Source: Escherichia phage vB_EcoM_EP57. From it: DNA of 64,000 nucleotides. This document shows, piece after piece, positions 2,105-15,662 of this stretch. The notes under the pieces are model-generated. The model was not told the origin of the DNA. It saw only the letters and a program-made list of their open reading frames with translations, and did no database searches. The position numbers and the translations under genes are program-made. Location: sequence record OR544956; one strand, 5' to 3'. Every line of letters starts with the position of its first letter. Positions within the stretch are counted from its first letter, which is position 1.

Positions 2105-2344
2105 TCATTTTCTACCTCCCCATAATGCTAACATTTTATTGAAAATGGAAACGCGTCGTGCGCGAGATGCAACCGGATTCCCTCGGAAGTATTCGTTAAT
2201 GAAATCGATAACACACGTTTCACTGCCTGTCACAACGGACGGCTTAAAGTTTTGGAATTCTACAGCTACACGGCTGGCTTTAGCCAGTGCTTGCACACGT
2301 GTAGGATCAGTCAAGAACATTGTGACAGTTTTCAAATTCTTCAT
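2105..2344 (-). CDS. hypothetical protein (79 aa)
   Basis: ORF with GAGGAGATGAA RBS. Confidence 0.5.
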   Translation of the reverse strand: MKNLKTVTMFLTDPTRVQALAKASRVAVEFQNFKPSVVTGSETCVIDFINEYFRGNPVASRARRVSIFNKMLALWGGRK

Positions 2345-2569
2345 TTCATCTCCTCATTTATTCAATGCAAGCATTATTTGCATGACAATCTCCTCTCATC
2401 GTTAGCCATCTTTCATGGCAATCATCAATCACCAACATCATACGATCAATCTCAGGGAATTACAATCGAATTATCATAGGGGATTCCTATCAATTATCCC
2501 ATATATACCGATTATTTTTGACACCCCACTCTTGTATAAAAAGTAACCCAAAATATCTACGGGGAGAGA

Positions 2570-2764
2570 TTATTTCGACACACCCTGTTTCATGGCAATC
2601 ATGGCAAGAATATCTAATAGAATCAATATCATATGGCAAAAATCATGACGCATACGTAAGAAGTGCTTAACGCGAATTTTCGGGCCGTCAGGTCCACGCA
2701 GCGACAATTCCCAAATATCATGCGAATGAGAATAATTATCATTCGTATTCAATGACTTATGCAA
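2570..2764 (-). CDS. hypothetical protein (64 aa)
   Basis: ORF only; weak support. Confidence 0.3.
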   Translation of the reverse strand: MHKSLNTNDNYSHSHDIWELSLRGPDGPKIRVKHFLRMRHDFCHMILILLDILAMIAMKQGVSK

Positions 2765-3787
2765 GGCTCATGCCAACATAGCGACAAGGTGGGCCACCTG
2801 ATTATAAATCACACAAACACTTATTTATCAATGGCTTGGCAACTTCATCATATGACGGAACAATGTCAACTGATCCCGCTCATGACAAACGGACTATTAT
2901 TTATATGAGAATGATTATTATTTAAACGTTTATTAACATAAAAGCCAAAATAAATCAAGAATTTTCTGATTTTATTTACGTTTAAGAGAACTTGCTCAAC
3001 ATATCGCTACGCGATAGTATTCGCCCCCCATGCTAATGATCTCATCTTGTAATTACCACAATGATTATTGTTATTGCGCTAATGTTATGATCTTGGTAAT
3101 TACATATAATGCTAATAATAAGCCAGCGCAATAAGTGTAAGCGTCATTACGCTTGCAATTATTGCAAGCTACGCAGTAACAAGAAATAACCATCACCGAT
3201 GGTTATGATTGTTGGGGTGTAGTTGGCTTATTATTAGCTCGCTATGTGTCCGGCATAGCGTGCTAATGATGACTCTGTGAATGATTCGTTTTGTAATGAT
3301 TTCATTTAGGCACTATTATGGTAATAGTTATTATTTTAATGGTTTCGTTTGTTATTGTTCGTTAGTTGGTTGTTTTGTCGTGTTATCGTTATCTTGTTTA
3401 GTATTCATCATGGTTTGATTGTTTGTTGTTATCAATCATCTTGCTATTATTCCTTTGATTATGATTAGTTTGCTTATTGTTTTAGGTTGTTGGTTAGTTA
3501 GTTGTTGCGAACTATTATCAACATTATAGTTATGCACTTATATTGCATAGATAAACATGGATAGATGATAATGGTTATCATTGCACTAGAAAGGAGGTAA
3601 AAGGGTGTTTTTGATGGTTTGTTGTTGGTTGTTGATCGATTTTAACCGCTATAAATGGCTCTCTAACAGCCTGTTACCCTGGGAGGTATGGTTATTCGTT
3701 TAATGGTTGATTAGCTTGATACCGCTATTTATTCAGTTTTGTTCTGTGTCGGTTTTCCATAGGCGGAATCTATCAACATTATTCAGG

Positions 3788-3815
3788 CAAAAAGAAAGGG
3801 CGCTTGGTGCGCCCC
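3788..3815 (-). terminator. rho-independent terminator
   Basis: hairpin GGGCGC-TTGGT-GCGCCC followed on minus strand by CTTTCTTTTT; downstream of 3831..4250. Confidence 0.6.
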
Positions 3816-3830
3816 TTGTTTTGTTGTCAA

Positions 3831-4250
3831 TTATAACGCTTCATAGATTGAGTAGATCCGGTTTGCCAGGTCATTACGAAAGCGGAATTTTTCATCACGT
3901 TTGATCATCAGATCCTTAAAACCACATTCTTTCAAGGCTTCATTAACTTTATGGCGGCAAACGTTCATATTATCTTGCGCGTCACCAATAAACTTATTAC
4001 TGTGATGCATTGCTTTGATCTCTTCCTCTAATACCAGGGCAACTACACGGATCGGATCAAGCTGATATGCGGTAACATCCATGCGGCATTGTAAACGGCT
4101 TTTAACATCGTTTACCGGATATACTGCAACCTCTTCCCCGTCAACGTTCACGATAACCAATTTACCATCGATTTCGAAGCCTTTGGCGGCGCTACCGTGA
4201 CAAAAAGCATTATCGAAGGAGTAAGCTGGATTATTTGATTTAATGTTCAT
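3831..4250 (-). CDS. hypothetical protein (139 aa)
   Basis: ORF, strand-consistent. Confidence 0.6.
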   Translation of the reverse strand: MNIKSNNPAYSFDNAFCHGSAAKGFEIDGKLVIVNVDGEEVAVYPVNDVKSRLQCRMDVTAYQLDPIRVVALVLEEEIKAMHHSNKFIGDAQDNMNVCRHKVNEALKECGFKDLMIKRDEKFRFRNDLANRIYSIYEAL

Positions 4251-12491: not shown

Positions 12492-12586
12492 AGTCTTTAA
12501 TCTCTTTTGATTAGTTAGGAGTATTCCCGATAAAAGTTATTATGCTTATACTATCACTCATTGTCAATAGTATAAGACTAAAACTT

Positions 12587-12766
12587 TTAACGATAATCAT
12601 TATAGGCTTTATTGACCTGGCGAATGTAACATTCGAAAGCAAGATCAATGTATTCGTATTCACGCACATAATCACCATAGGTCACTACATACATTTTTAA
12701 AGTTTCCTCATAAGCCAGGAGGATCGAATCTAAACCTATAATCTCAGTTTTTGCAATGATAGCCAT
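12587..12766 (-). CDS. small hypothetical protein (59 aa)
   Basis: hand-found ORF with RBS. Confidence 0.35.
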   Translation of the reverse strand: MAIIAKTEIIGLDSILLAYEETLKMYVVTYGDYVREYEYIDLAFECYIRQVNKAYNDYR

Positions 12767-15389: not shown

Positions 15390-15662
15390 GTTTTACATAC
15401 AGAAGAGGAAGCGCCACCCCACGGCGTAAAGGCGGGGCTAACATACCAGGGGCACTGGTTGGAAGGTTGATCGCCGGTAGCTCGTCTAAAATAAATTTGT
15501 AAAGAAATGTAAAGATAAAAATAATCGCTTGCTTTTTATTCTTATTGTATGGCGAGGGGACACGGGAGCGCGAGACAAACACCGCCCCTGCGCGTCATTC
15601 TCTAAATGAGATTGATTCTTATTTAATAAAGTAAATGATAATCATTCTCATTTAAAAATTTT

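Follow-up and report, generated by a model that had tools for sequence, protein, structure and literature searches.

To our knowledge, no mechanism by which terminally repeated phage genomes with exact ends are regenerated, primed or packaged has been established outside T7. The concatemer junction of T7 and T3 reportedly consists of a repeat flanked by SRL/SRR arrays, with pacB, phiOR and a proposed hairpin intermediate. The specificity of T7 and T3 packaging resides in the few percent of the genome nearest the ends, with transcription coupled to junction processing (PMC3276506). In T5, the injection stop signal is found in a conserved untranslated region of 1.66 kb that straddles the end of the terminal repeat and abounds in repeats and palindromes (bioRxiv 10.1101/866236), and a 2026 review considers the making of exact terminally redundant genomes to be more poorly understood than packaging of the cos or headful type (PMC13595956). 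Genomes of the subfamily Stephanstirmvirinae are likewise said to end in direct terminal repeats (DTRs). In this report, we describe a gene-free interval at positions 2384-3830 of a 64,000-nucleotide stretch of Escherichia phage vB_EcoM_EP57 (sequence record OR544956; the whole stretch is hereafter the window), which holds a DTR, the adjoining concatemer-junction region and a covarying folded element of 150 nt.

By sequence, the source phage is a Phapecoctavirus: positions 2500-4100 are 98% identical to Escherichia phage tuntematon, and nearly all of the 113 matching phage records belong to this genus (phAPEC8-like, Stephanstirmvirinae, ~150 kb). A sequence-only reading of the window had flagged 2770-3830 as a strand-skewed, hairpin-bearing region inside an early-gene block and free of open reading frames (ORFs) of at least 60 aa. 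The last point agrees with the ORF list, which shows none wholly inside; a 65-aa frame with a TTG start (3707-3904, plus strand) is a mechanical ORF that crosses the right edge antisense to the real gene 3831-4250. The true gene-free interval is wider than the flagged one, extending over 2384-3830, and contains no conserved gene, with minus-strand genes on either side of the flagged stretch. Its counterpart in phAPEC8 is a 1.5-kb gap between phAPEC8_0018 and phAPEC8_0017 (gp18 and gp17), where a terminator is the sole annotation. The placement within an early block did not survive, as the region instead spans the physical genome ends, and the main point that had been missed is that the gap holds the DTR and the concatemer-junction region. 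The features of the repeat and its edges are as follows, with a slash marking the putative cut.

2668-2996, no strand assigned: direct terminal repeat, one collapsed copy, 329 bp by the record ends of relatives.
2664-2671, plus strand: left DTR edge TGCT/TAAC, putative terminase cut site, with the same 4+4 nt as the other edge.
2993-3000, plus strand: right DTR edge TGCT/CAAC, carrying the edge motif.
2933-3000, plus strand: conserved run-up to the right DTR edge, AAATCAAGAWWWTTC-N15-TTTAAGARA-N4-GCT/CAAC.
2933-2938 and 2957-2962, plus strand: promoter-like pair TTAACA and AAGAAT within the right-edge run-up.

The repeat was identified from two independent relatives' records, the window itself carrying a single copy, as expected of a circularised assembly. 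When first and last bases were compared, MK373788 proved to have an exact 329-bp repeat at either end and MT496970 an exact 328-bp repeat, and both map to window positions 2668/2669-2996 with 96-98% identity. The records of WPEC1, BI-EHEC, VEcB, PD114 and 118_SA_NWU begin or end at DTR edges; WPEC1 begins on the same base as the repeat edge of MK373788 and MT496970, and the first base of the VEcB and PD114 records falls exactly on the opposite edge. Additionally, the terminal repeat of Schickermooser was given as 328 bp from PacBio data (Korf et al., PMC6563267) and that of BME3 as 342 bp by PhageTerm (PMC12210895). Both repeats are the same element as the one described here, the Schickermooser repeat having 97% identity to window 2668-2996; in the passages searched, the two papers give the length only, and no edge motif, adjacent modules or fold were found described. 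In virion order and conventional orientation, which corresponds to the minus strand of the window, the genome starts with the repeat, a 285-nt leader and the left-arm genes; at the far end, the last right-arm gene (3831-4250) and its terminator precede untranslated DNA of 800 nt (from 3794 to 2997), after which the repeat returns. The untranslated right-end region, which adjoins the right-hand repeat on its inner side, occupies positions 2997-3830. As a whole, the stretch encodes no protein and makes up a stack of cis-acting modules. In order, these are the edge cut motifs with their run-up, hairpin/C-run modules with GCTAAT boxes, the 150-nt fold, a C-poor spacer and a conserved block, termed block R. 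That the region is a genome terminus and non-coding we regard as very likely.

The two DTR edges share eight bases in one register (AAGTGCT/TAACGCG and ACTTGCT/CAACATA, general form TGCT/YAAC). The right edge and ~45 nt of its run-up are kept in Phapecoctavirus, the phiWec clade, a Klebsiella phage, an IMG/VR contig and Justusliebigvirus. In Erwinia phage Hena1 (Vequintavirinae), the annotated repeat edge is AAAAGTGTT/TAGCACAT (GTGTT/TAGC), which is homologous to the right edge.

The most conserved segment across genera is the folded element, for which the following helices were derived.

3111-3260, plus strand: conserved folded element, a predicted three-way junction plus 3' hairpin.
3111-3125 with 3224-3238, plus strand: helix P1, the closing helix.
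3128-3144 with 3149-3165, plus strand: helix P2, a long hairpin, with an alternative hairpin at 3150-3168.
3168-3174 with 3217-3223, plus strand: helix P3, which stacks on P1.
3177-3182 with 3209-3214, plus strand: helix P3b.
3186-3194 with 3198-3206, plus strand: helix P4, a hairpin.
3240-3247 with 3253-3260, plus strand: helix P5, the 3' hairpin.

Two hairpins noticed in the sequence-only reading, CGCTATG-TGTCCGG-CATAGCG (3240-3260) and AAGCG-TCATTA-CGCTT (3139-3154), are present as parts of this larger conserved fold. In a distant search, the core 3147-3270 was ~80% identical in Justusliebigvirus, with surroundings at ~70% or lost. A covariance search across related phages, as that reading had proposed, was run with RNAalifold on a plus-strand alignment of 17 distinct sequences, later enlarged to 24, and revealed compensating changes in excess of controls. 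With 17 sequences, 51 pairs were supported, 99.2% of cells were paired and 13 pairs had changed on both sides, values as high being reached in none of 500 shuffles; a slid control, in which partners were moved by 1-3 columns, gave 23-53% pairing. With 24 sequences, pairing stood at 99.4% and 71 cells had changed on both sides, again with none of 500 shuffles as high on any of the five measures. Overall, the fold has 45-51 pairs. Variants of P1 illustrate the exchange of partners (AAGCC/GGCTT, AACGCA/TGCGTT, ACCGCA/TGCGGT, AACACA/TGTGTT, and an AAT/ATT swap in phage arall), and the tip of P2 varies in length among relatives. The P4 loop (alignment columns 116-118, window 3195-3197) reads ACC in Phapecoctavirus and arall and GGT in most Justusliebigvirus; the latter is the reverse complement of the former, as though the loop had been inverted inside a perfect palindrome.

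The fold is specific to one strand. Its paired cells include 81 G·T wobbles at nine plus-strand positions, several of them invariant, against a single A·C; because these wobbles become mismatches on the minus strand, only the plus strand folds. The plus-strand RNA of 3105-3275 folds at -76.8 kcal/mol (z = -10.1), whereas the minus strand reaches -60.9, 16 kcal/mol less stable, and with DNA parameters the two strands are 7 kcal/mol apart (-47.4 and -40.7 kcal/mol). The functional form is, with high confidence, a single-stranded plus-strand molecule, antisense to the flanking genes, and the chances that this molecule is RNA are about even. The suggestion of a structured non-coding nucleic acid thus stands for the 150-nt core, with its covariation and G·T wobbles, but not for the T/G-rich stretch, which has no structure on either strand.

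A covariance model of the element finds one copy in the window (200 bits) and homologues in nine metagenomic contigs, with no convincing match in three loci of Vequintavirinae or unclassified phages. Rfam 15 gave no match over the 64 kb at gathering thresholds, and at E up to 5 over 2300-3900 gave chance-level matches alone (E 0.59 or worse); no tRNA or tmRNA was found. An exact-pattern scan of 185,579 bacterial genomes, one per species, returned five hits in unrelated metagenome-assembled genomes, about the number expected by chance, and the fold is therefore not host-derived. A candidate sigma-70 promoter just 5' of P1 was rejected: TATAAT at 3105-3110 has no -35 element and is not conserved in Justusliebigvirus.

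Among the known systems that resemble the fold is the phi29 pRNA, likewise a three-way-junction element of ~120-170 nt encoded near a linear genome end. However, replication in phi29-like phages is protein-primed and a small terminase is lacking there, the two share no sequence or Rfam similarity, and the present element has about even chances of being RNA at all. Strand-specific covariation with invariant G·U pairs would also be expected of a free-standing, trans-acting phage non-coding RNA (ncRNA), for instance a host-takeover or anti-defence decoy expressed early from the genome end with no part in packaging or replication. A variable distance from the cut site and a P2 tip of variable length, as in many RNAs, would fit such a molecule, and phage PhiTE, of the wider rV5-like group, reportedly carries an ncRNA mimic of an antitoxin. 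We nevertheless consider this rather unlikely, given that no convincing promoter or terminator brackets the fold, that near-perfect helices of such length (15 bp here and 20 bp in Hena1) would serve RNase III as substrates, and that there is neither an Rfam family match nor a ToxI-like repeat. Specifically, positions 2997-3830 contain no type III antitoxin-like tandem repeats of 34-40 nt and no match to the ToxI unit.

An element of equivalent architecture is seen in Vequintavirinae, where candidates were located by eye and by folding. In Hena1, a gene-free stretch of 950 nt comes after an annotated 519-bp repeat. Within it, 266 nt from the repeat edge, a 20-bp closing helix surrounds nested helices, and the hairpin that comes next starts with GCTCGCTATG, as does P5 of the window. 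The design is kept, with differing helix sequences, in the Hena1 relatives pEp_SNUABM_01 and pEa_SNUABM_55, in Salmonella phage PVP-SE1 and in Cronobacter phage EspYZU15; one helix, for example, reads CCACCTATAAACGCTGATAG, CCACCTATAAAAGCAAGTAG or GACACTATAACACGAGAG, each with its complement. An alignment of five sequences, which is small and partly misaligned, has 11 pairs changed on both sides. A separately covarying counterpart thus appears to adjoin the DTR in Henunavirus and Seunavirus, which we take as support rather than proof. Two further arrangements were observed in this subfamily. Escherichia phage TH18 (locus L024, 2050-2930) carries a CA-rich array at 2050-2170 and a GT-rich array at 2770-2930 around a 500-nt hairpin cluster, a large-scale inverted symmetry about a structured zone. 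In PVP-SE1 (locus L062, 940-1000), a strong sigma-70-like pair, TTGACT-18-TATAAC, is followed by a short hairpin and T-run just 5' of the structured element, and the motif GACACTATAACAC occurs twice.

Between the right DTR edge and the fold lie reiterated short modules.

2997-3030, plus strand: cut-site module, comprising CAACAT, the hairpin TATCGC-TAC-GCGATA (3002-3016) and TTCGCCCCCC (3020-3029).
3032-3270, no strand assigned: cluster of GCTAAT boxes, on the plus strand at 3032, 3078, 3111 and 3262, inverted at 3230.

The hairpin of the cut-site module varies in sequence by clade, and the third component of the module is TTCGCCCCC. Relatives have two or three copies of it, while Justusliebigvirus has instead five or six CAACAAATAG units. 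At 3028-3031, the window has lost 85-153 bp that are present in every relative and correspond to one or two extra cut-site/hairpin/C-run modules; the deletion falls between TTCGCCCCC direct repeats, that is, the C-run repeats. GCTAAT boxes are reiterated in all clades. The recurring motif pointed out earlier is real, with five of the twelve GCTAATRWT matches of the window falling within 3032-3270, where 2.9 would be expected in the whole 64 kb.

These boxes also invite comparison with replication origins. The GCTAAT boxes would act as iterons beside an AT-rich unwinding or R-loop zone (3271-3560), and the fold would be a primer-RNA domain, as in ColE1 RNA II or T4 oriF/oriG, or a G4-type priming signal. 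The likeness to these systems consists in an AT-rich, G>C-skewed stretch that comes after a structured domain, or in three hairpins within ~140 nt on one strand. Five clustered boxes, a spacer of 29-33% G+C with strong G>C skew on the non-template strand and the lack of ORFs accord with an origin, and a secondary origin of T7 (phiOR) occupies the equivalent place. In rV5, skew analysis failed to locate the origin (PMC3606486). An RNA with 43% U would, however, form weak RNA:DNA hybrids and is poor material for R-loops; an eye check of the printed alignment sequences revealed no conserved CTG priming site after the hairpins; and no promoter was identified for a primer of the ColE1 or T4 kind. 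Furthermore, the boxes are also part of the covarying helix P1, the spacer is the least conserved part of the region, and near-matches to the DnaA box are not clearly enriched, with no consensus box either in 2384-3830 or in five relatives' equivalent regions. The origin proposed in the sequence-only reading accordingly keeps its clustered repeats beside an AT-rich spacer but lacks consensus DnaA boxes and a detectable initiator context, and we judge it improbable.

The remainder of the right-end region comprises the spacer, block R and a terminator, together with palindromes resembling Fur boxes, two of which lie in the DTR.

3271-3560, no strand assigned: G/T-rich (plus strand), C-poor low-complexity spacer, 30% G+C, with GTTGTT, TTAGTT and similar words.
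3561-3794, no strand assigned: conserved block R, with a Fur-box-like palindrome, motifs and a small hairpin.
3565-3582, no strand assigned: Fur-box-like palindrome GATAATGGTTATCATT at the start of block R.
3711-3735: conserved motif TTAGCTYGATACCGC..TTATTCA of block R.
3759-3773: small hairpin ATAG-N7-CTAT of block R.
3795-3817, minus strand: intrinsic terminator of the last right-arm gene, a symmetric hairpin invariant in all relatives.
2722-2746 and 2907-2925, no strand assigned: Fur-box-like palindromes in the DTR, matching GATAATGATAATCATTATC.

The T/G skew reported for the whole flagged region is real but limited to ~3150-3750. At 3201, the 500-nt G+T fraction (0.676) is ~4 standard deviations above the mean and the maximum of the 64 kb, and the AT skew (-0.347) is the minimum. 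The spacer shows no secondary structure beyond shuffles on either strand, no tandem repeats were found in the skewed stretch, and in place of the helical 10-11 bp phasing of bent DNA, which is absent, there is just a weak local period of 3-4 nt. Identity between genera falls to 70-73% here, and the spacer is C-poor on the plus strand in all clades. One explanation is that the skewed spacer buffers transcription, its unstructured C>G minus-strand RNA loading Rho to stop read-through from the right arm before it enters the junction and the next unit's early genes. Minus-strand RNA of 3276-3560 folds at just -22 kcal/mol per 285 nt, its C/G ratio has a median of 2.2 and a maximum of 7.3, the highest in the window, C>G on this strand is the one compositional trait common to all genera, and immediately upstream of the spacer stands an intrinsic terminator. 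Set against this, the density of YC is 5.9 per 100 nt compared with a genome average of 10.0, no more than 42% of the 78-nt windows rise above the 95th percentile of the genome, and the argument is one of composition alone. Such a buffer has a low probability in our estimation; it would be compatible with a terminus that carries packaging, replication and transcription control.

Block R keeps a spacing of 217-220 nt between palindrome and terminator in 16 phages of two subfamilies, and its conserved stretches include TTAGCTCGATACCGCG.TTTATTCA. A consensus RNA fold of the block is weak (-17 kcal/mol, little covariation). Conserved sequence without a consensus RNA fold is the pattern of protein-binding DNA, and points to block R being such DNA. 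As for the terminator, T-runs flank it on both strands (3795-3826) in this phage and its closest relatives, and in WPEC1, TSP7_1, Justusliebigvirus and others the minus-strand T-run alone is kept.

The palindromes match the 19-bp consensus GATAATGATAATCATTATC at 14-15/19 positions (2722), 14/19 (2907) and 14-15/19 (3567), the range given for the DTR palindromes being 13-15/19. Score alone is a weak guide, with ~55 sites of at least 13/19 in the 64 kb. For the DTR palindromes, distances to the cut site are conserved, and in Justusliebigvirus, where this also applies, the DTR copy matches at 16/19 by hand count. Similar palindromes, AATGATnATCATT, are found in ordinary intergenic regions at 12586-12604 (15/19) and 15631-15649 (16/19), which suggests operators, and the palindromes may represent a shared operator for host Fur or a phage repressor. 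Separately, a 40-bp module of the terminal repeat (2900-2941) recurs inverted at 15619-15656 with 83% identity.

How the locus compares with T5 bears on these palindromes. Both regions comprise more than 1 kb of non-coding, stop-codon-rich DNA that straddles a terminal-repeat boundary, but the T5 repeat is 10 kb long, its region has eight paired DnaA boxes as a hallmark, which are absent here, and covariation has not been analysed in T5. A T5-like injection-stop or docking zone, in which palindromes and repeats bind a host protein (DnaA as proposed for T5, Fur here) and pause or anchor the entering DNA, could draw on the three Fur-box-like palindromes at conserved positions and on the precedent of T5 itself. 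In view of the missing DnaA boxes and of the Fur-like boxes in the ordinary intergenic regions at 12586 and 15631, we find it highly unlikely; we also know of no two-step injection in this phage group. With the T7/T3 junction, the locus shares a short exact terminal repeat (160-230 bp in T7/T3, 329 bp here) and unique, non-coding DNA at the right-end side with reiterated short motifs and inverted repeats. It differs in belonging to a 150-kb myovirus without phage RNA polymerase promoters, in having a non-coding zone four times longer and no sequence similarity, and in its 150-nt covarying multi-helix fold, which is not known to have been described for T7.

Micro-proteins overlooked by annotation would be a further explanation of the gap, the candidate being a hydrophobic ORF. 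The sequence-only reading had noted a strong Shine-Dalgarno sequence before a 30-aa frame; site and frame are both present, the Shine-Dalgarno-like AAAGGAGGT at 3590-3598 lying 6 nt before GTG 3605, but the frame measures 32 aa (3605-3703), or 29 aa from an internal ATG. As a gene, it was rejected, since Shine-Dalgarno and start are absent in the phiWec clade, Justusliebigvirus and a Klebsiella phage. A TAG stands at codon 17 in most Phapecoctavirus relatives; it is seen in Schickermooser, ETEC-TG, TSP7_1, EcG1 and phiWec186/188. The records of ETEC-TG (locus L003, 1415-2930) and WPEC1 (locus L009, 168-1293) annotate 5-8 tiny coding sequences in the terminus region, none of them conserved or matched in PHROGs; these are probably over-predictions. 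A search of PHROGs with nine micro-ORFs, including the 106-aa coding sequence of WPEC1, gave no family, and that 106-aa ORF is broken in the window. Homologous regions of relatives encode no conserved proteins, with no frame, start or ribosome-binding site in common, and the suggested cluster of micro-ORFs falls with them. For all that AAAGGAGGT is well placed before GTG 3605 and tiny coding sequences stand in two records, missed genes are the least credible explanation, and a very improbable one.

On balance, we favour the reading of the gap as the terminus and concatemer-junction region of a linear DTR genome, with a role in packaging, replication and transcription control, which we consider somewhat probable as a whole. 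Several observations weigh against it. The termini are taken from relatives' records rather than from virion DNA of this isolate. TGCTYAAC by itself occurs eight times in the window, with 4.9 expected; the octamer is not rare, and the cut-site argument therefore rests on common register and conservation. The promoter-like site at 2933-2962 is weak (9/12), and its -10-like element (2957-2962, AAGAAT/GATAAT) is conserved but its -35 is not in Justusliebigvirus. No terminator was found after the fold, that is, after P5. The distance from cut site to fold ranges from 115 to ~330 nt; the fold is therefore no rigid component of a cutting complex. An excess of T over A in the spacer is confined to Phapecoctavirus, for which the terminus reading has no account, and a literature search returned no transcriptomes of these phages and no transcript, terminus or binding data.

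What the analysis shows is anatomy, namely the identity and edges of the DTR, the lack of conserved ORFs, the covariation and strand specificity of the fold and the pattern in which the modules are conserved; every function, and the choice between RNA and DNA, we infer. By analogy with T7/T3 and T5, terminase would recognise the reiterated boxes and cut at TGCT/YAAC, with neighbouring elements organising repeat regeneration, end-proximal replication or transcription, and the terminator and spacer insulating the junction from read-through. The fold might help to regenerate the repeat or to prime near the genome end, or it might be an RNA started from the -10-like element at 2957-2962. We lean slightly towards an RNA transcribed out of the repeat from 2957-2962, over a fold-back DNA strand. 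A role in packaging or replication is about as likely as not.

The opposite flank of the repeat and the genes at both borders complete the map.

2384-2667, minus strand: left-end untranslated leader, reaching from the terminal repeat to the first left-arm gene remnant (ATG 2383, minus strand).
2419-2440 and 2454-2498: short tandem repeats of the leader, 7 nt x3.3 and 24 nt x1.9.
2598 to 2569, minus strand: promoter-like site TTGCCA-18-AATAAT in the leader.
3831-4250, minus strand: last right-arm gene, homologue of phAPEC8_0017 and right border of the non-coding region.

The leader is 97-99% identical to close relatives. Next to it, at positions 2016-2383, five early genes of tuntematon/phAPEC8 survive as a patchwork of pieces with 100% identity, while the gene bodies are missing (deletions of 668, 354, 445, 34 and 345 bp); one leftover is a 9-codon stub, MQIMLALNK followed by a stop. 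The junctions of this patchwork occur in none of 50,697 phage records, and either dispensable early genes may have been lost naturally or the sequence may have been edited. A separate observation concerns MG065650, MG065645 and MG065656, recorded as 'Campylobacter phage' B15, A145 and C3: they are ~97% identical to Phapecoctavirus/Justusliebigvirus coliphages, and on this similarity the host label looks doubtful.

Among coliphages and Salmonella phages of broad host range, Phapecoctavirus, Justusliebigvirus and Vequintavirinae rank with the most often isolated, and therapy cocktails make use of them. Their ends are routinely mis-assembled or arbitrarily placed, with the terminus region left unannotated or given spurious small coding sequences. 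The group was already known to have a terminal-repeat region; descriptions of the fold, of the cut-site motif and of the module map appear to be missing from the literature searched, which gives the repeat length only. The present analysis provides a precise cut-site motif, a conserved module map and a strongly covarying, strand-specific fold beside the repeat. These offer targets for mutagenesis and a basis for correct genome orientation and for engineering, in which deletion and insertion designs must spare the modules. More tentatively, and with a doubt that should be kept in mind, the 150-nt fold may found a new family of single-stranded structured phage elements directly involved in regenerating, priming or packaging terminally repeated genomes with exact ends. 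Its proposed members are found in Phapecoctavirus, Justusliebigvirus, the phiWec and Klebsiella clades and nine metagenomic contigs, with an equivalent in Henunavirus and Seunavirus. The element of such a family would most likely be an RNA read from the terminal repeat and, if the fold is indeed RNA, it would constitute a new phage RNA family.

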